Part shown: one piece after another, positions 3,187 through 28,869 of the stretch
How positions within the stretch are numbered: position 1 is the first letter of the stretch
Layout: each line of letters starts with the position of its first letter
Source of the DNA: a virus
Lineage: Duplodnaviria > Heunggongvirae > Uroviricota > Caudoviricetes
Length of the DNA stretch: 30,130 nt
Virus record (IMG/VR): IMGVR_UViG_2778261177_000009
Location: 1 to 30,130 of that record
Strand: one strand, 5' to 3'
Notes under the pieces: model-generated
The model's database searches: none
Told to the model about the DNA's origin: nothing
The model's input: only the letters and a program-made list of their open reading frames with translations
Program-made: the position numbers and the translations under genes

Positions 3187-3459
3187 CTATGACAATAAAA
3201 GAATTGCCTCTTCAACAACCTGCTTTCTTTTTAATAACATCGTTTCAGTAGATGCTTCATTTTCTGCATCAATATACTTGTCTTGAAGTTCAAGTATTTT
3301 TAAATCTATAGCGTCGTCACATTCAATAACTCCACTTGCTATGATTTTGTCACGTTGATTTACTTGCGCTGTAGTGATATCGCTTCCGCTCATGTTTCCA
3401 TAATAATCAACGATAGCCTTGAATAACACATCTGCCTGTTTTGCATCTGAACCAGTCAT
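3187..3459 (-). CDS. small acidic protein translationally coupled to the tailspike
   Basis: Its ATG overlaps the tailspike stop (TAATG); 90 aa, acidic, no TM helix; lies in the same AT-rich block as the tailspike C-terminal domain. Confidence 0.5.
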   Translation of the reverse strand: MTGSDAKQADVLFKAIVDYYGNMSGSDITTAQVNQRDKIIASGVIECDDAIDLKILELQDKYIDAENEASTETMLLKRKQVVEEAILLLS

Positions 3460-5870
3460 TAATTATACCCCGCTATTCTGATTTCTTTCATATAATTGTT
3501 ATTTACGTTATGTGTCATTTTAAATAACACATACCAACTATATGCAAGTCCATGTGTTTCATCTGCCATTTTTACAAAGCCAGGGGCAGTTGACCCCATT
3601 TGAGTTACTATTGTAGTGTTTTCAACTCCAGATGTAGCAACTTTTGAATTAGAAAACGCCGTGTAAGGATCTGTATTTATATCTCCGTCAAACGATATCA
3701 TCTGAATTAAACTTGCTTCAACAGTAGATCCTGCTGCTGCTGCATTCTGATCAGGTGAAATGTTAAATCTTATAAAAGCTCTTATATCATCAATAGCTTT
3801 TATATCATCTGGAACCCTCCACATGAAGTAAAGATCAACACCGTTTTTTGTTGATACTAATTTGTTAAATGTCCATGATAATGTGTCTGCTTTGTCGTTC
3901 AGAATTATTTCTGATGGTCTTAAATAAAAATATCTTCTGAACCAACCAAGAACAGTATTATTGGTTAAAAACCATGATTGCAGGTTTGTGCCACCAAAGC
4001 CTATAGATTTAGGGTTTTTATTTATTTTGTTTCCGCTTGCGTTATTATTTGCGAAATACAACTCATTTATGTATGCCCCCTTACCATGAAATGCATCAAT
4101 AACAGAGTATTTTGCACGAAGAGCGACAACATTATCAGCTGATGCAGAAATGTTTCTTATAATATTCGGCATGTTAGCATCATTATATGAATCATCAGTA
4201 TAGTAGGTGGCTACACCATTAATGCAGTCACCAACATCTATATTCTCAACAAGACAACCTTTTGCATTATTTAATAGAACCATCTCCGAAGATGCTGTAC
4301 GACCTAATTTTGCAGCTCGTAAATCTTTAAACCCACAGTTTTCTACAAAGTTTGTAGCAGCTCCTGAACCATTAATAGTTCCGGCAGTCATAGGCTTAAG
4401 TAGATCACAATCTTCAATCCAGCAATCTGTTGAGTTTGCAATAAAACCAAATGCATAATAAGTGCGAACAAGATCCGCCTTTTCAACGGTAGCACCTTTT
4501 GCAATTACATCATAACAAGATGGAGAAGAGGAAGAACTATCGTTACCAAAGTTAAACAATTGAGTCCAACCATCACCAACCACATCGAAAAATCTTATAT
4601 GCTGTGCATTAACACAATTAAATGCATAGCCTCCCCAATAGCTGGAATCAGTAAACACTGCAGACATGCGCAAGCCATAAACTTTACATTTCTCACACTG
4701 AACATAAGACTGATTATCTCTCAGGTAAGATTTCAGTGGTAACTCTGCCATCGTAGAATCAGCAACGGAAGACGGGTAATTACCGGAATTGTATGCCGCT
4801 TTTGCTTTTTTATAGTTCCATTCTCTGCCACTCCCAAAAACGAAACCACCACGACCATACATTGACAATGGGTTTATCTGTTTTACCGTAGCCCCATATC
4901 CTATAATTACAACATTGCTGGGTACGAACTGAATAAAATCAATCCAATAGGTTTTACCTGGTGTGAAATATGCTACACCGCCACCTAAAGATCGTAACCA
5001 CTCAAACATATTAAACATTTTTTTAGAATTAGCATGAGCGTCTGGCTGGGAATCAGTAATAACGCCCCATGCCTCAGGACAAGTCCACTTACCAATAAGT
5101 TGATTTAAAGATCCAGACCCTGGCATGCCCAGCAAAGACATACCAAGACCATCTTCATGAGATGCTAACTTTATTGCGAGATCTGCTGTATCTGTCATCG
5201 AAAAAACAGGTATTGGCTTTCCGTTGCTATCCCATCCTAACAACGAGTTTTTCCGAACAGATACCGGGCTTAGTTGGTCAACAGTGCTTTCTGGAACCCG
5301 TAGAGTTCTCGCAAAATTACTGTCAATCTTCTGATCAAGAATGGCATCACCAGCTTTCCAGGCATTGGTGTTGTCAACGATCTGCCCATCAACATAATTC
5401 TTCGTGGCTGCGTCCTGCGCCTGTGACGGGTCACGAAGGTTACGAATGCGGTTGTTGAGTGCGTCATAATAGTTCGCGATGAACGACGGCTTGCGCAGCG
5501 CCAGGCGTAGAAAGCTGAAACACTGCTGGATAAGCATGGTCAGCTTGTCGAACGCATCCTCATGGACCTCTGCGAAGAACTTCCCCTGGTTACGGAGGTC
5601 AGTCTCTTGGGTAACTGGGAGGTCGCGCGAGATAGAAATCTGCCATCCGTTGGCCAGCGGTGACATCAGCACGACATTCCCGCCAGAATAGGTACCCGCC
5701 CCGGTAACGGAGTAATCGGTATCCAGAGTCAGCACCGTAATATTTTCGTTAAGGTCAGCGACCTGGACGGTGAGATCTGACTTCTTGAAGATGCGGAACG
5801 TGTACGGGAAAGATGTGGTAACGCCGTTCCCTGTGTAGTCGTTATGGTCGACTTCGGTTGAGACCGTCAT
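3459..5870 (-). CDS. tailspike protein (conserved N-terminal virion-attachment domain plus beta-helix receptor-binding/depolymerase domain)
   Basis: GGAG RBS; 803 aa; N-terminus MTVSTEVDHNDYTGNGVTTSFPYTF recalled as the conserved tailspike anchor of epsilon15/phiV10-type phages; C-terminal two thirds are AT-rich with Gly/Asn/Ser-rich beta-helix-like repeats. Confidence 0.8.
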   Translation of the reverse strand: MTVSTEVDHNDYTGNGVTTSFPYTFRIFKKSDLTVQVADLNENITVLTLDTDYSVTGAGTYSGGNVVLMSPLANGWQISISRDLPVTQETDLRNQGKFFAEVHEDAFDKLTMLIQQCFSFLRLALRKPSFIANYYDALNNRIRNLRDPSQAQDAATKNYVDGQIVDNTNAWKAGDAILDQKIDSNFARTLRVPESTVDQLSPVSVRKNSLLGWDSNGKPIPVFSMTDTADLAIKLASHEDGLGMSLLGMPGSGSLNQLIGKWTCPEAWGVITDSQPDAHANSKKMFNMFEWLRSLGGGVAYFTPGKTYWIDFIQFVPSNVVIIGYGATVKQINPLSMYGRGGFVFGSGREWNYKKAKAAYNSGNYPSSVADSTMAELPLKSYLRDNQSYVQCEKCKVYGLRMSAVFTDSSYWGGYAFNCVNAQHIRFFDVVGDGWTQLFNFGNDSSSSSPSCYDVIAKGATVEKADLVRTYYAFGFIANSTDCWIEDCDLLKPMTAGTINGSGAATNFVENCGFKDLRAAKLGRTASSEMVLLNNAKGCLVENIDVGDCINGVATYYTDDSYNDANMPNIIRNISASADNVVALRAKYSVIDAFHGKGAYINELYFANNNASGNKINKNPKSIGFGGTNLQSWFLTNNTVLGWFRRYFYLRPSEIILNDKADTLSWTFNKLVSTKNGVDLYFMWRVPDDIKAIDDIRAFIRFNISPDQNAAAAGSTVEASLIQMISFDGDINTDPYTAFSNSKVATSGVENTTIVTQMGSTAPGFVKMADETHGLAYSWYVLFKMTHNVNNNYMKEIRIAGYN

Positions 5871-5973: not shown

Positions 5974-5990
5974 ATTACCTTTCAGGTAAT
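5974..5990. promoter_or_regulatory. TTACC-N5-GGTAA palindrome, site A (ATTACCTTTCAGGTAAT)
   Basis: Perfect 7-3-7 inverted repeat in the gap between the tailspike start and the LexA-box gene; member of a six-site family. Confidence 0.5.
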
Positions 5991-6327: not shown

Positions 6328-6350
6328 AAAGGCCGCAAGAGCGGCCTATC
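6328..6350. terminator. hairpin terminator between convergent genes
   Basis: Stem GGCCGC / GCGGCC with loop AAGA, T-rich sequence on both sides; overlaps the stop of the minus-strand gene 6346..7074. Confidence 0.45.
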
Positions 6351-7074
6351 GTTTCGCTTTGTGCTCATCCCAGCACGTTTTGCACCATGCCATTAAACCA
6401 TCCGCATTTTGATTATTAGGGTAAAAGCTGGTTCGTTTTCTGCGGACATTACAAATTGGGCACCACTTCATATGGCGTGTATTCTTTGGGCCATCGAGAC
6501 ACCTTGCACACCACTTAGTCAATCCATCTGGATTTTTTGACGATTTCCTGAATTTTTCATATGGAAGGTTTATTCTGCATCGCAAGCACTGCTTGCTACC
6601 ACTTGAGACTCTATTAGCTGATTCTTCTTTTGGCGGCGATACAGAAGGTATTCTTGCTGGCTCTGATACTGCCTGAGGTGCTTTTTTAGATGACTGAGAC
6701 GATATGTCATCACCAGGGAATCTTCCATGATATGCCGGAGGCGTTGACACTCCAGGTGGAAGCTCAGCTGTAAACGGCTTTGGCTGAATCAGTTGCCTCT
6801 CTTTTGCTAACTCCTGCTGTTTATAATATGTCTGGATTACCGCACTATCATAAGCAGGAGGTGCGGAAATATTAGGCGCATTACCTCCAGTTTTTTGAAA
6901 CTGAGTAGAGGTGTGTTCTATCACCTGTGTACGATTAATCGTTATCTCTCCATCTTCGGTCTTTATCGTTTTGTTATGATTAACGACCGTACGATCAGAG
7001 ATCTTAGTCTTGTTCTGGTTGATAACGTAAATAATCACCGCAACCACACCAACAACTATCCAGAAAACTTCCAT
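6346..7074 (-). CDS. membrane-anchored protein with two tandem C-x2-C-x22-C-x2-C zinc-ribbon repeats
   Basis: GAGGA RBS; N-terminal TM helix (VFWIVVGVVAVIIYVI), Pro/Ser-rich linker, then two repeats CLRC..(22)..WCARC and CPIC..(22)..WCKTC sharing a DGL-x2-WC core. Confidence 0.6.
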   Translation of the reverse strand: MEVFWIVVGVVAVIIYVINQNKTKISDRTVVNHNKTIKTEDGEITINRTQVIEHTSTQFQKTGGNAPNISAPPAYDSAVIQTYYKQQELAKERQLIQPKPFTAELPPGVSTPPAYHGRFPGDDISSQSSKKAPQAVSEPARIPSVSPPKEESANRVSSGSKQCLRCRINLPYEKFRKSSKNPDGLTKWCARCLDGPKNTRHMKWCPICNVRRKRTSFYPNNQNADGLMAWCKTCWDEHKAKR

Positions 7075-7093: not shown

Positions 7094-7110
7094 ATTACCT
7101 TAAAGGTAAT
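7094..7110. promoter_or_regulatory. TTACC-N5-GGTAA palindrome, site B (ATTACCTTAAAGGTAAT)
   Basis: Perfect palindrome 20 bp upstream of the start of the minus-strand gene 6346..7074; includes a TACCTT that could be a plus-strand -10 preceded by TTGCTT. Confidence 0.5.
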
Positions 7111-7186: not shown

Positions 7187-7204
7187 ATTACCTTTGCGGT
7201 AAAT
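7187..7204. promoter_or_regulatory. TTACC-N5-GGTAA palindrome, site B2 (ATTACCTTTGCGGTAAAT)
   Basis: Second copy 93 bp downstream of site B, in the leader of the antirepressor-like gene. Confidence 0.45.
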
Positions 7205-7292
7205 TTACATCGCACTCCTCTTGTGCCATAGTAATCGGGCACTGGCAAAATCCAGTGCCGGGATTGGTCTCCCGGATTACTAAGTGGCGCAT

Positions 7293-7316
7293 ACCACGCC
7301 AGACGTGGTTTTTTTA
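7293..7316 (+). terminator. intrinsic terminator inside the 5' leader of the antirepressor-like gene
   Basis: Stem ACCACG / CGTGGT with loop CCAGA followed by TTTTTTT; preceded by another stable hairpin (GGCACTGG / CCAGTGCC, 7238..7259). Confidence 0.45.
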
Positions 7317-7473
7317 TGCGTATAGCACAGTCATGCCAGAATTATGGTGGGCTGAATGGGGGTCCGAAAGGACGCCGGTACCACTTAGGCCGGTAAGACC
7401 AACTCCGTTCAGTTCACCACCATCTGATTGGTCTCAGCGGTGGTGATGTAATTCGCTAAGTGGAGACACCATC

Positions 7474-8138: not shown

Positions 8139-8160
8139 GGCACAGGGATGTGCCTTTAAA
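8139..8160 (+). terminator. hairpin terminator after the antirepressor-like gene
   Basis: Stem GGCACA / TGTGCC with loop GGGA followed by TTTAAATAATT. Confidence 0.4.
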
Positions 8161-8201
8161 TAATTCTGTACAGATTGCAGACTGGGGGTGAATAGCGTAC
8201 T

Positions 8202-8218
8202 ATTACCTTAAAGGTAAA
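8202..8218. promoter_or_regulatory. TTACC-N5-GGTAA palindrome, site C (ATTACCTTAAAGGTAAA)
   Basis: Core 15-mer identical to site B; 42 bp upstream of the start of the two-gene operon at 8260. Confidence 0.5.
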
Positions 8219-8259
8219 CCTGTTTTTATTTTATACCTGTAACTTACCGGAGATTAAAG

Positions 8260-8586
8260 ATGACAAAACTTGGATTCGTGATGAGAGGTCCGGTAAGAAG
8301 CGGAACTCATGCAAAGCGTAGCAAGAGTCGTATTTTTACTGGTAAGGTTGTAGCACGTAAATCAGCTATTGGCTCGTTCAATAGTGAAAATGCGGCATTG
8401 CGCCATATTTTTATCAGCACAAAGCCAAGAGCATCCGCTGATGTGCATACAATGTCTATTCCTATCACAAAGAGTATAAAGCGGATAAAAAAGCTCTCAT
8501 CTGCAGAATCAAAAGAGATATCTTTCCGCCAGCTTAACTCATTAGAAACGCATATGAAGGAAGAGGAATTCGATGTTTTTGAGTGA
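8260..8586 (+). CDS. small basic protein, first gene of a two-gene operon (candidate antitoxin/regulator)
   Basis: GGAG RBS 7 nt upstream; Lys/Arg-rich N-terminal half and acidic C-terminus (EEEFDVFE); overlaps the downstream gene by 14 nt; AT-rich. Confidence 0.45.
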   Translation: MTKLGFVMRGPVRSGTHAKRSKSRIFTGKVVARKSAIGSFNSENAALRHIFISTKPRASADVHTMSIPITKSIKRIKKLSSAESKEISFRQLNSLETHMKEEEFDVFE

Positions 8587-9085
8587 GTATAGCGGGAAGG
8601 TTATACCTACTGGTGAGTTTAAAACTGATGACTTTCTGATTTCGCTAAAAGATGCTTTTAAACAACACTGGCGTCATGGTCATCATCCTGATCTGGGAAA
8701 AGATACTCTTTTTGAAAGACCAGACGAAGTATTAGGTTTCCATCTCAGAAAGGTTCATGTCAATATTGGTGAATATGCATCATATTCATACTCATGTACT
8801 GAACAGTGTTGGGATGAGTGGTCATACGGATTGATTGATGAACAAGGAAATTACAGGCCAAAACCAACCAGTAACGCATATCTCATATATGCAGTCAATG
8901 AAATAAGAGATGCAGCCTTACTAGCTTATTGGGACCCGCCCGCACACACCAAAGCTAACGCAAAAGTTTGGATGGATTCCGTATTGAATTTCACAAAATT
9001 ATTTCATGAACGAACGAATACAGCTCCACTTAGTAGAAATGTTTATCCGTGGGATTATTCGTACAAATCCAAAAAGCCTGCATAG
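8573..9085 (+). CDS. hypothetical protein, weak collinear similarity to YafO-family toxins (candidate toxin or abortive-infection effector)
   Basis: AGGAAGAGGAA RBS inside the upstream gene; by eye three collinear blocks resemble E. coli YafO (GKDTLF vs GRDALY; RKVHVNI vs ERVAHIH; AYLIYA..AALLAY vs AHLVYC..AWLLIA); His-rich motif HWRHGHHPD; AT-rich. Confidence 0.5.
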   Translation: MFLSEYSGKVIPTGEFKTDDFLISLKDAFKQHWRHGHHPDLGKDTLFERPDEVLGFHLRKVHVNIGEYASYSYSCTEQCWDEWSYGLIDEQGNYRPKPTSNAYLIYAVNEIRDAALLAYWDPPAHTKANAKVWMDSVLNFTKLFHERTNTAPLSRNVYPWDYSYKSKKPA

Positions 9086-9166
9086 TAGTTTTTTATGGAC
9101 GAAACAAAAGTCAGTGCTACACTCATTGACGCCACATTGAGGTGGCTTATAGATGGAAATTTCACA

Positions 9167-9328
9167 ATGAAAAAAGCATTTGCTGCACTGTTCGTTTTAT
9201 TGTCTCTGGTAGCTTCAACTCAGGCCTTTGCTGGTCGTTGTCAGCACGACAGCGACACTGCTGCTGACGGCTCCCGCTGCGGTGGGCGTTCTGCGGATTC
9301 CCGCCCGGGCGGCGGTGGCATTCGTTAA
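9167..9328 (+). CDS. possible small secreted Cys-containing peptide
   Basis: Internal Met begins a classic signal peptide MKKAFAALFVLLSLVASTQAFA followed by a 31-aa Gly/Arg/Asp-rich peptide with two Cys; weak RBS and no plus-strand terminator, so coding status is uncertain. Confidence 0.25.
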   Translation: MKKAFAALFVLLSLVASTQAFAGRCQHDSDTAADGSRCGGRSADSRPGGGGIR

Positions 9329-9349
9329 AACAAGGCCGCGAAAGCGGCC
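9323..9349 (-). terminator. rho-independent terminator ending the minus-strand ejection-gene operon
   Basis: Stem GGCCGC / GCGGCC (9334..9349) with loop GAAA; on the minus strand it is followed by TTGTTTTAA. Confidence 0.5.
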
Positions 9350-9350
9350 T

Positions 9351-9369: not shown

Positions 9370-9510
9370 TTATGACAAGCCTATGTACCCTGCTACACCA
9401 GATAATATCAAAATAACTGCAACAGCAAATTCGCCATCGTCAATGATACATTTGCGGTTCATAACGCCAAGTGCAACAAGCGCAAACACAACAAGAATAA
9501 AAGCAATCAT
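9370..9510 (-). CDS. unannotated 46-aa two-helix membrane peptide coupled to the upstream ejection gene
   Basis: Hand translation: MIAFILVVFALVALGVMNRKCIIDDGEFAVAVILILSGVAGYIGLS; AAGGATGAG RBS; ATG 9 nt after the TAA stop of the 824-aa gene; followed by the GTGACATGTCAC palindrome and the terminator. Too short for the ORF track. Confidence 0.4.
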   Translation of the reverse strand: MIAFILVVFALVALGVMNRKCIIDDGEFAVAVILILSGVAGYIGLS

Positions 9511-25573: not shown

Positions 25574-25602
25574 TTGACATTTAACGCACGAATTATTACC
25601 TT
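25574..25602 (+). promoter_or_regulatory. sigma70-like promoter (TTGACA, 17-bp spacer, TACCTT) overlapping palindrome site D
   Basis: Perfect -35 hexamer TTGACA at 25574..25579; the TAnnnT hexamer TACCTT at 25597..25602 lies inside the palindrome; oriented toward the tRNA and the plus-strand ORF. Confidence 0.45.
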
Positions 25603-25611
25603 TAAGGTAAC
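25595..25611. promoter_or_regulatory. TTACC-N5-GGTAA palindrome, site D (ATTACCTTTAAGGTAAC)
   Basis: Same motif as sites A-C; lies between the portal-proximal gene (start 25505) and the tRNA island. Confidence 0.5.
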
Positions 25612-28130: not shown

Positions 28131-28759
28131 TGATTACCATCCTGACGTTCTTTGAGTCGCTTCCTGGCTGCTGCTATGCGATCAGCAATTGTCACATTCA
28201 CATTAACATCCAGACGTTCTTTGAACGCGTTAACGTCGACGTGCTTACCGATGAGCTCGAGGTTTTTCACCTTGTCGGGCCATTTCACCTTCTTCAGGAT
28301 ATGCTCGACATCCTCAACAGAGAGATCCGCCTCGCCATTCTCTTTTTGCAGGGAAGCCTGGGTTGTCTTGATGGTAGCGATATCCATAGCACTGAGAGAG
28401 GTACGCCAGACCTTCGGCCATTCAGCGATCGGCTTCATCCCGCCGTCATCGTTCAGTATATCCAGCACGTCCATCTGGTCGATCTCCACCAGGCGCATGA
28501 GAACGTAATCAGCACTGACGCGCATTCGTTTGTTGCGCTCCTCCATCAACTCGGCAATCCGTTTTTGAATGCGTTCATCGCGCATCATGACACTGGCTTT
28601 AACTGCCGCTGTATTTGGGGAGAATCCTGCGTTAATCGCTGCCTGAGTCTGGTTTTCAGGCGTTTTGATGTATGACTGGCAATAAGCCTCCTGCATTGCT
28701 GTTAGTGGCTTAAATTGCGTTGATTTGCGTTTATAGGTTTTAGGTTCAGCAGGCATCAT
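28127..28759 (-). CDS. terminase small subunit (putative)
   Basis: Immediately upstream of and overlapping terL. Start taken as the first ATG (MMPAEPK) with GGTGG RBS; the ORF track extends to a TTG at 28837 across a tandem repeat, which is judged non-coding leader. Confidence 0.5.
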   Translation of the reverse strand: MMPAEPKTYKRKSTQFKPLTAMQEAYCQSYIKTPENQTQAAINAGFSPNTAAVKASVMMRDERIQKRIAELMEERNKRMRVSADYVLMRLVEIDQMDVLDILNDDGGMKPIAEWPKVWRTSLSAMDIATIKTTQASLQKENGEADLSVEDVEHILKKVKWPDKVKNLELIGKHVDVNAFKERLDVNVNVTIADRIAAARKRLKERQDGNQ

Positions 28760-28776
28760 AACCACCGTGGTAATAG

Positions 28777-28791
28777 TTACCGTTGTGGTAA
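28777..28791. promoter_or_regulatory. TTACC-N5-GGTAA palindrome, site E (TTACCGTTGTGGTAA)
   Basis: Formed at the junction of a tandem 18-bp direct repeat (GTGGTAATAGTTACC / GTGGTAATAGTACC, 28767..28798); 18-32 bp upstream of the proposed terS start. Confidence 0.4.
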
Positions 28792-28869
28792 TAGTACCAT
28801 GCAAAATAAAGCCGCCATAGTTGGCGGCAGTATTCAAAACCCGTCAAATTCATCATGCATAATCTACTC

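Follow-up and report, generated by a model that had tools for sequence, protein, structure and literature searches.

Introduction

In experiments, YafO of Escherichia coli K-12 acted as an mRNA interferase that depends on translation and that YafN neutralises (PMC2814082). The YafO family, which belongs to a set of 13 RelE/ParE families of BECR fold, keeps the gene order antitoxin then toxin, while HigB modules have the reverse order (PMC11980606). In this work we describe a two-gene unit, genes A and B, in a DNA stretch of 30,130 nucleotides (nt) from the IMG/VR record IMGVR_UViG_2778261177_000009, hereafter the window, the whole of which is an E. coli prophage of the epsilon15/phiV10-like group (Uetakevirus). 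We propose that A-B is, rather probably, a genuine type II toxin-antitoxin (TA) pair of the YafO family, in which B would be the toxin and A the antitoxin. The proposal was made because the profile matches of B, its profile-profile homology to YafO, the RelE/HigB fold of its model and a strict A-B synteny with a 14-nt overlap agree. A first-pass annotation, read from the letters of the window, had called the pair a candidate TA or abortive-infection module; profile, fold and synteny concur on the TA half of that call, and the other half is weighed below.

With respect to regulation, phages P1 and P7 provide the nearest described setting: their C1 repressor has many dispersed operators, and the c4 antisense RNA of immI controls ant. 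The features needed for the description of the pair are the following (aa, amino acids; pI, isoelectric point).

8260-8586, plus strand: gene A, putative antitoxin, 108 aa, pI 10.6, taken from the list of open reading frames (ORFs) and always found 5' of B
8573-9085, plus strand: gene B, long-form YafO-family (RelE/ParE BECR-fold) putative toxin and mRNA endoribonuclease, 170 aa
8557-8586, plus strand: translational-coupling junction, with the Shine-Dalgarno sequence of B (AAGGAAGAGGA) at 8557-8567, the ATG of B at 8573 and the stop codon of A at 8584-8586

Results and Discussion

Gene B and the YafO family

The YafO likeness of B, claimed earlier from three collinear blocks, was confirmed by profile methods. 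B matched the Pfam model YafO_toxin (PF13957) over positions 7-100 of its 101, with 19.7 bits and E 9.5e-4, a score below the gathering threshold of that model. The close homologues of B behaved likewise, all ten of them matching PF13957 at E <= 0.1 (best E 2e-5), and for one homologue, 76% identical to B (P0009), a precomputed match to PF13957 is present. Since a comparison of the B subfamily with the lone K-12 YafO sequence was insensitive, an alignment-versus-alignment comparison was used in its place, with K-12 YafO and five members drawn from the matches of the B profile search on the short YafO side (alignments A1 and A7). In this comparison hhalign gave a probability of 99.1% and E 6.7e-19 over 114 columns, residues 21-150 of B corresponding to residues 17-132 of YafO. 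An exhaustive profile search among 1.84 billion representative proteins returned 54 clusters at 50% identity, which include proteins of 133-135 aa resembling canonical YafO.

The residues F29, G42, H62 and H125 of B were invariant in 42 family members, K-12 YafO included, and H62 together with H125 is the likely catalytic pair. Of the His-rich motif HWRHGHHPD, to which the first-pass annotation had drawn attention, no more than G36, H37 and H38 are without variation in the close subfamily, and G36 alone is near-invariant across the family. The Cys-containing insertion reported at the same time is present, with a CW..W motif, and lies between the HVH and PTS strands; its size relative to K-12 YafO is about 19 residues, not 17. 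B also has a C-terminal extension with respect to K-12 YafO. Across genera, the proportion of nonsynonymous differences in B (pN) was 0.13-0.19 against about 0.8, a saturated value, for synonymous ones (pS), which denotes strong purifying selection.

The structure model of B, built with AlphaFold2 (AF2) from a shallow alignment of 22 sequences, adopts the RelE/HigB fold with a RelE-like alpha/beta arrangement, that is, the RelE/ParE (BECR) fold. Sequence searches of the PDB with A, B and K-12 YafO found zero solved YafO structures and zero relatives. In RefSeq, B bears the name "type II toxin-antitoxin system YafO family toxin" and occurs in 69 of 5,426 complete E. coli genomes; because that annotation already says so, the YafO identity of B is correct and already known. 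Three database proteins (P0030, P0048 and P0075) resemble frameshifted or truncated forms of B, and in P0075 the MKEEEFDV of the C-terminus of A appears fused to the N-terminus of B. They could represent inactivation of the toxin in some genomes or assembly errors.

Gene A and its pairing with B

The two plus-strand ORFs overlap by 14 nt and the Shine-Dalgarno sequence of B lies inside A, as had been noted from the coordinates. The identical 14-nt overlap, ATG...TGA, was found in 11 of 11 related loci. Every locus that was reached, by way of A or of B, has an A-like gene of 104-112 aa directly 5' of a 170-aa B; these loci come from E. coli, Salmonella, Serratia, Citrobacter and metagenomes. 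A small 5' gene tightly linked to and co-inherited with the toxin is thus a property of the pair, as expected of a type II TA module. The autoregulation expected of such a module was not found, A having no DNA-binding domain and the sole palindrome being phage-wide (see below).

A was described at first as small and very basic with an acidic tail, and so it is (pI 10.6, ending in EEEFDVFE). The same annotation recognised no antitoxin fold in it, in agreement with the blank results of Pfam, NCBIfam, PADLOC and the PDB; its sole match was phrog_5933, of unknown function. The homologues of A are few and 41-52% identical, against 66-82% for those of B. Their alignment (A2) shows an invariant N-terminus (MTKLGFVMRG..KR.K) and a conserved C-terminus (ISFR.L.SLE..MKEEEFD.FE), separated by a hypervariable stretch, residues ~25-80, for which the pN/pS pattern indicates near-neutral evolution. 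AF2 predicted disorder for A apart from a single confident helix at 81-107. A DNA-binding domain was detected neither in this model nor with Pfam or NCBIfam. Constrained ends around a variable middle would fit an antitoxin. A is probably an antitoxin, to judge by its position and conservation, and one outside every known family.

The C-terminus of A has a counterpart beside another YafO-like toxin. Its last 37 residues aligned end to end with the C-terminus of a 139-aa partner protein in EC.W1-9 (hhalign E 3e-4), and this protein was the top non-family match of a hidden Markov model (HMM) of the A C-terminus among 2,537 decoy ORFs. This match suggests that the C-terminus of A may be a portable toxin-binding module.

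A relationship with YafN was also considered. K-12 YafN matches PF02604 (E 1.5e-7), the YafN/Phd-YefM family, whereas A gave no Pfam match to the N-terminal domain of that family. The tails of the two proteins, …DMTDDDFNDFKE in YafN and …HMKEEEFDVFE in A, look alike by eye, a resemblance with no statistical support; hhalign picked the expected C-terminal alignment, but at an E value that makes it a lead only.

Cassette boundaries and the cargo hotspot

The limits of the DNA that carries A and B were set by blastn breakpoints against phiv142-3, TL-2011b and phiV10. The palindrome in front of A is still part of the homology with phiv142-3 and TL-2011b, which ends at 8218 and restarts at 9089; the cargo is therefore 8219-9088.

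8219-9088, plus strand: exchangeable cargo cassette of 870 bp, G+C (GC) content ~0.39, carrying A and B (blastn breakpoints, composition profile)

The composition profile gave a GC content of 0.38-0.40 for the A+B block and 0.46-0.56 for its flanks. The AT-rich block inside a minus-strand structural region, as the first-pass annotation put it, is thereby borne out, the flanks containing tail-fibre and virion genes. In the same slot TL-2011b has a 59-aa ORF and a YafO-like gene, phiv142-3 has two unrelated ORFs, and phiV10 is empty. The slot behind the palindrome, a repressor operator by our reading, thus serves for the exchange of toxin-like cargo in Uetakevirus prophages. The exact A-B pair was absent from 50,697 phage records, where matches were flanks or relatives of less than 50% identity only.

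The phiv142-3 slot (L003) contains a 55-aa ORF at 3331-3498 and an ORF of ~146 aa with a TTG start at 3519-3959, of which the record annotates only a fragment. The pattern HYH...SNECIHY...REH in the latter recalls RelE-like toxins; as a YafO-like protein it was rejected, with an hhalign probability of 1% and no Pfam match.

A dispersed operator in front of the pair

The pair is preceded by a hairpin, a candidate promoter and a palindrome. The last of these occurs all over the phage.

8139-8154, plus strand: hairpin GGCACAgggaTGTGCC (GGCACA-ggga-TGTGCC, then TTTAAATAATT) just 3' of the antA stop codon, terminator-like, part of the phage backbone and outside the cassette
8175-8203, plus strand: candidate sigma-70 promoter TTGCAG-N17-TACTAT, predicted from the sequence, the last 2 bases of its -10 being the first 2 of the palindrome
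8202-8218, no strand: copy of the phage operator ATTACC-N5-GGTAA(T), here ATTACCTTAAAGGTAAA, a backbone element at the left edge of the cargo
5974-5990, 7094-7110, 7187-7203, 8202-8218, 25595-25611 and 28758-28792: operator copies in the window, with a one-mismatch copy at 4713
1169-1247, 1943-1959 and 4274-4352 of the related locus L024: operator copies there

The first-pass annotation had placed the genes behind their own palindromic operator and after a terminator. The palindrome is real, with invariant arms and a variable spacer in 8 divergent loci; it does not belong to the operon. The window has 7-8 copies of ATTACC-N5-GGTAA, with 15 strand matches where 0.25 would be expected. They stand before the 86-aa gene and that of the tail fibre, before antA (twice), before A, before the portal operon and at the start of terS (twice). 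In the same prophage the gene of the helix-turn-helix (HTH) repressor, WP_000836290, has copies on both sides. phiV10 (L026), which has no A-B cassette, carries ~13 copies at equivalent places, and TL-2011b and phiv142-3 present the identical hairpin and palindrome ahead of quite different cargo. Autoregulation by A at the palindrome was rejected, since the palindrome has phage-wide copies, stands on the flanks of the repressor gene and is present in phiV10, which lacks A. As to the terminator, the hairpin is kept across loci, where a G-C pair can replace an A-T pair by compensatory change (GGCACA/TGTGCC versus GGCGCA/GCGCC; alignment A3); the terminator scan did not call it, the T-run being too weak.

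The -10 of the candidate promoter and the palindrome are in a fixed register. The arrangement TAnnAT|TACC, seen before A as TACTAT|TACC, recurs at the antA promoter (TTGATT-18-TATCAT), at the early-left promoter (TTGACA-17-AATCAT) and at TTGATT-17-TTTAAT, and is common to strong canonical promoters and to that of A. A -10 that ends on the palindrome is, as far as sequence can tell, the geometry of a repressor operator lying over a transcription start. We also observed that the 17-bp palindrome ATTACC-N5-GGTAAT precedes nearly every Uetakevirus transcription unit, often with a 2-nt overlap with the -10 hexamer. By analogy, it looks like a dispersed operator system in the style of P1 C1. A literature search found no description of an ATTACC-N5-GGTAAT operator.

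Upstream of antA, Rfam detected the isrK Hfq-binding RNA at 7239-7315 (67.7 bits) and the C4 antisense RNA at 7340-7424 (61.2 bits; plus-strand region 7226-7424), both above the gathering score. A c4 a1/b1 target element at 7226-7278 scored 39.9 bits, just under its gathering score of 46.7. Taken together, these predicted elements correspond to a P1/P7-type immI antisense circuit on the antirepressor. An antirepressor that is part of a classical immunity-I circuit must be silent in lysogens. The palindrome would then be the operator of the main prophage repressor, or of Cro, and because an operator covers the -10 of A-B and there is no private one, control by the prophage repressor is the most likely arrangement. 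Whether A-B itself is gated in this way we regard as evenly balanced, judging from promoter architecture.

Proposed function of the pair and its alternatives

According to the proposed mechanism, B would be a RelE-fold endoribonuclease which, like E. coli YafO, cleaves translated mRNA and so arrests protein synthesis. The C-terminal amphipathic helix of A and its acidic/aromatic tail may bind B and neutralise it. Through the 14-nt overlap, translation of B would depend on translation of A, so that A would be at least as abundant as B, and B would not be made without A. The cassette would have been plugged in behind a dispersed 17-bp operator, into which the -10 of a weak sigma-70 promoter extends. 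The prophage repressor would govern the pair, which would be low in stable lysogens and turned on, together with the antirepressor, after infection or induction.

Several results count against a YafO-type TA pair under repressor control. The 19.7 bits of B are less than the PF13957 gathering threshold of 25, and Foldseek found nothing significant for the B model in the PDB or in BFVD. Profile searches and PDB sequence searches detected no similarity of A to known antitoxin families. The AF2 model of A is poor, with a predicted local distance difference test (pLDDT) of 60. Homology between A and the C-terminus of YafN was not supported, as hhalign covered the C-terminal 28 residues only, with a non-significant E of 0.11, and BLASTP gave none. 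Similarly, the A C-terminus HMM, with or without the EC.W1-9 partner, recovered neither YafN nor the TL-2011b 59-aa partner nor the 67-, 69- and 73-aa partners of other YafO-like toxins among the 2,537 decoys. The -35 of the candidate promoter is weak (3/6), and, as it also precedes late genes, the palindrome may have an activator role. A literature search on these protein accessions returned nothing specific on toxicity, RNase activity, binding or expression of A-B.

A wider version of the TA proposal is advanced only tentatively. It holds that A-B could be a repressor-gated module which has lost self-regulation and is made only on infection or induction, as an early function of the phage, and that A could belong to a new antitoxin family lacking a DNA-binding domain, whose C-terminal helix is a portable YafO-neutralising module carried on unrelated N-termini. 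Were the pair so gated, its role could be host translation shut-off, an abortive-induction checkpoint or a weapon against co-infecting phages. Under the main proposal, A-B would extend the small YafO family by an uncharacterised long-form branch and bring in a new partner family, phrog_5933, without a DNA-binding domain; it would also exemplify a TA pair under a phage repressor and not under self-control.

The abortive-infection half of the first-pass call fared less well. It would require that A-B is expressed constitutively in the lysogen and that an infecting phage shuts off the host or degrades A, so that the freed B cuts mRNA and the infection aborts. AT-rich foreign cargo at a prophage hotspot of variable accessory content would suit such a moron, and RelE-superfamily TA modules are capable of defence (PMC11980606); a distant member of the family adjoins a RexA-like gene, and the imperfect operator copy in front of A-B (GGTAAA) may permit some basal expression. 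However, the PADLOC-DB v2 models gave no match to A, B or the neighbouring genes at E <= 1, so that the profile search proposed at the outset yielded YafO for B and no defence system, and an NCBIfam scan of the same genes returned nothing useful. In the literature searched on YafO-family modules no defence phenotype was found. Moreover, the sole regulatory element is the operator and -10 register of the antirepressor, necessarily silent in lysogens, and this wiring, which suggests joint repression of A-B with the antirepressor, counts weakly against constitutive defence. We regard a defence role as unlikely. A-B could instead be an addiction or selfish cassette that does no dedicated work for either phage or host. 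It would be maintained because its loss after expression is harmful, and would spread by recombination at the operator-flanked hotspot. The different cargoes in one slot of sister phages, with none in phiV10, are in keeping with it, as are the patchy distribution (the 69 E. coli genomes given above, and no sequenced phage record with the exact pair) and the seemingly damaged B copies P0030, P0048 and P0075. The strong purifying selection on B across genera and the preserved architecture of the pair speak against it, both being also compatible with selfish maintenance. This explanation overlaps with the repressor-controlled TA pair in mechanism and differs on benefit only; as an account of its own it seems quite improbable to us.

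There is also the view that A is not an antitoxin at all and instead an independent early phage protein, for example nucleic-acid-binding or host-targeting, that shares the operon, or that B is a non-toxic protein of RelE fold. A has no antitoxin-family match and no predicted folded DNA-binding domain, its invariant N-terminus is unexplained, and some RelE/ParE-fold proteins, such as ParE, are not RNases (PMC11980606). Nevertheless, A and B always occur together and their translational coupling is conserved, the C-terminal module is common to A and to the partner of another YafO-like toxin, and B retains both of the histidines that it has in common with K-12 YafO, whose toxicity was shown by experiment. 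We consider this view very improbable. The preferred reading, a YafO-family TA pair, describes a fairly ordinary TA pair in an unusual regulatory setting. Current views are not overturned by it, since antitoxin shuffling and prophage-borne TA modules are well known.

Surroundings of the pair in the prophage

The pair is part of a short plus-strand accessory island consisting of an 86-aa gene, the antirepressor gene antA, A, B and a gene for a small secreted protein, bordered on both sides by minus-strand tail-fibre and virion-protein genes. E. coli MB31 matched 8202-9085 at 100% identity, and its prophage sits between guaA and yfgG-yfgI.

9095-9328, plus strand: ORF of a small secreted or membrane protein of 53-77 aa, with a signal peptide and rich in Gly, Arg and Asp (phrog_3117/phrog_14503, "membrane associated protein"), backbone
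9333-9350: bidirectional terminator hairpin (terminator scan)
9370-9510, minus strand: 46-aa protein with two transmembrane (TM) segments, a small backbone ORF

The small-protein ORF is absent from phiV10. The terminator scan placed no terminator between B and this ORF, and for that reason the A-B transcript probably ends at the 9333-9350 hairpin.

Other genes of the neighbourhood were recorded as well. A 242-aa protein encoded at 6346-7074 (minus strand) has a TM helix at its N-terminus and two zinc-ribbon repeats, CxxC...CxxC, at its C-terminus, with weak matches to Stc1, endonuclease VII, HNH and Lar-like PHROGs; its gene is divergent from antA, with two operator copies between them. In some related prophages (L006/L007, 4557-4940; L016, 4873-5295, minus strand) a gene of the Rap1a family, which comprises immunity proteins against effectors of the type VI secretion system (T6SS), is located directly 3' of A-B and heads the virion-protein operon.

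Comparison with known systems

The closest described system is yafN-yafO of E. coli K-12. The homology of B to YafO covers practically the full length, and both proteins have the motifs G[KR]D, RP, H-x-H, [TS][SN][DN]..[LIV]Y and AH. In both cases the antitoxin, or candidate antitoxin, precedes the toxin in a tightly coupled operon. They differ in the length of the toxin (170 aa in B, 132 aa in YafO), in the partner, YafN being a Phd/YefM protein and A not, and in the setting, as yafNO is located in the SOS-regulated dinB operon whereas A-B is phage cargo behind a phage operator. The solved ribosome-dependent mRNA interferases HigB, RelE, YoeB and YafQ are more distant, with 7-15% identity to B and Foldseek scores that are not significant.

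Among phages, the gp45-gp44 pair of TL-2011b lies in precisely the slot of A-B, behind the same operator; its YafO-like toxin is 33% identical to B and is likewise preceded by a small overlapping ORF, of 59 aa. The 139-aa and 168-aa pair of EC.W1-9 has a toxin 47% identical to B, again with a small overlapping 5' ORF, whose product carries the C-terminal module of A; the pair lies at another genomic site, between the antirepressor gene and the 86-aa gene (L027, 2092-3007). The N-terminal regions of these 59-aa and 139-aa partners are unrelated to A. In EC.W1-9 the hotspot behind the operator (L027, 33-834) holds an unrelated overlapping pair of 108 aa and 167 aa, the second with a C-terminal TM segment. 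Other YafO-like toxins have unrelated small 5' partners, of 59, 67, 69, 73 or 97 aa, those of 67, 69 and 73 aa coming from metagenomic and plasmid loci. We also noted a distant YafO-like branch (L019-L023, L028-L030) on contigs resembling plasmids or integrative and conjugative elements (ICEs), with proteins of 170 aa that are 28-34% identical to B over 61-62% of the length and always a 73-aa 5' ORF at a gap of ~70 nt. Where these contigs reach far enough 5', a divergent gene of 330 aa, conserved but of unknown function, is present (426 aa in L023); one locus adjoins a RexA-like gene and another a RelE/HTH pair. This branch may represent a three-gene module or a defence-island setting.

As for regulation, the immunity system of phages P1 and P7 likewise has one operator scattered before many units, and likewise a c4 antisense RNA with a1/b1 targets 5' of the antirepressor gene. 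Unlike in P1 and P7, the operator here is the symmetric palindrome ATTACC-N5-GGTAAT and the phage is a podovirus; the likeness concerns the regulatory context and not the TA pair.

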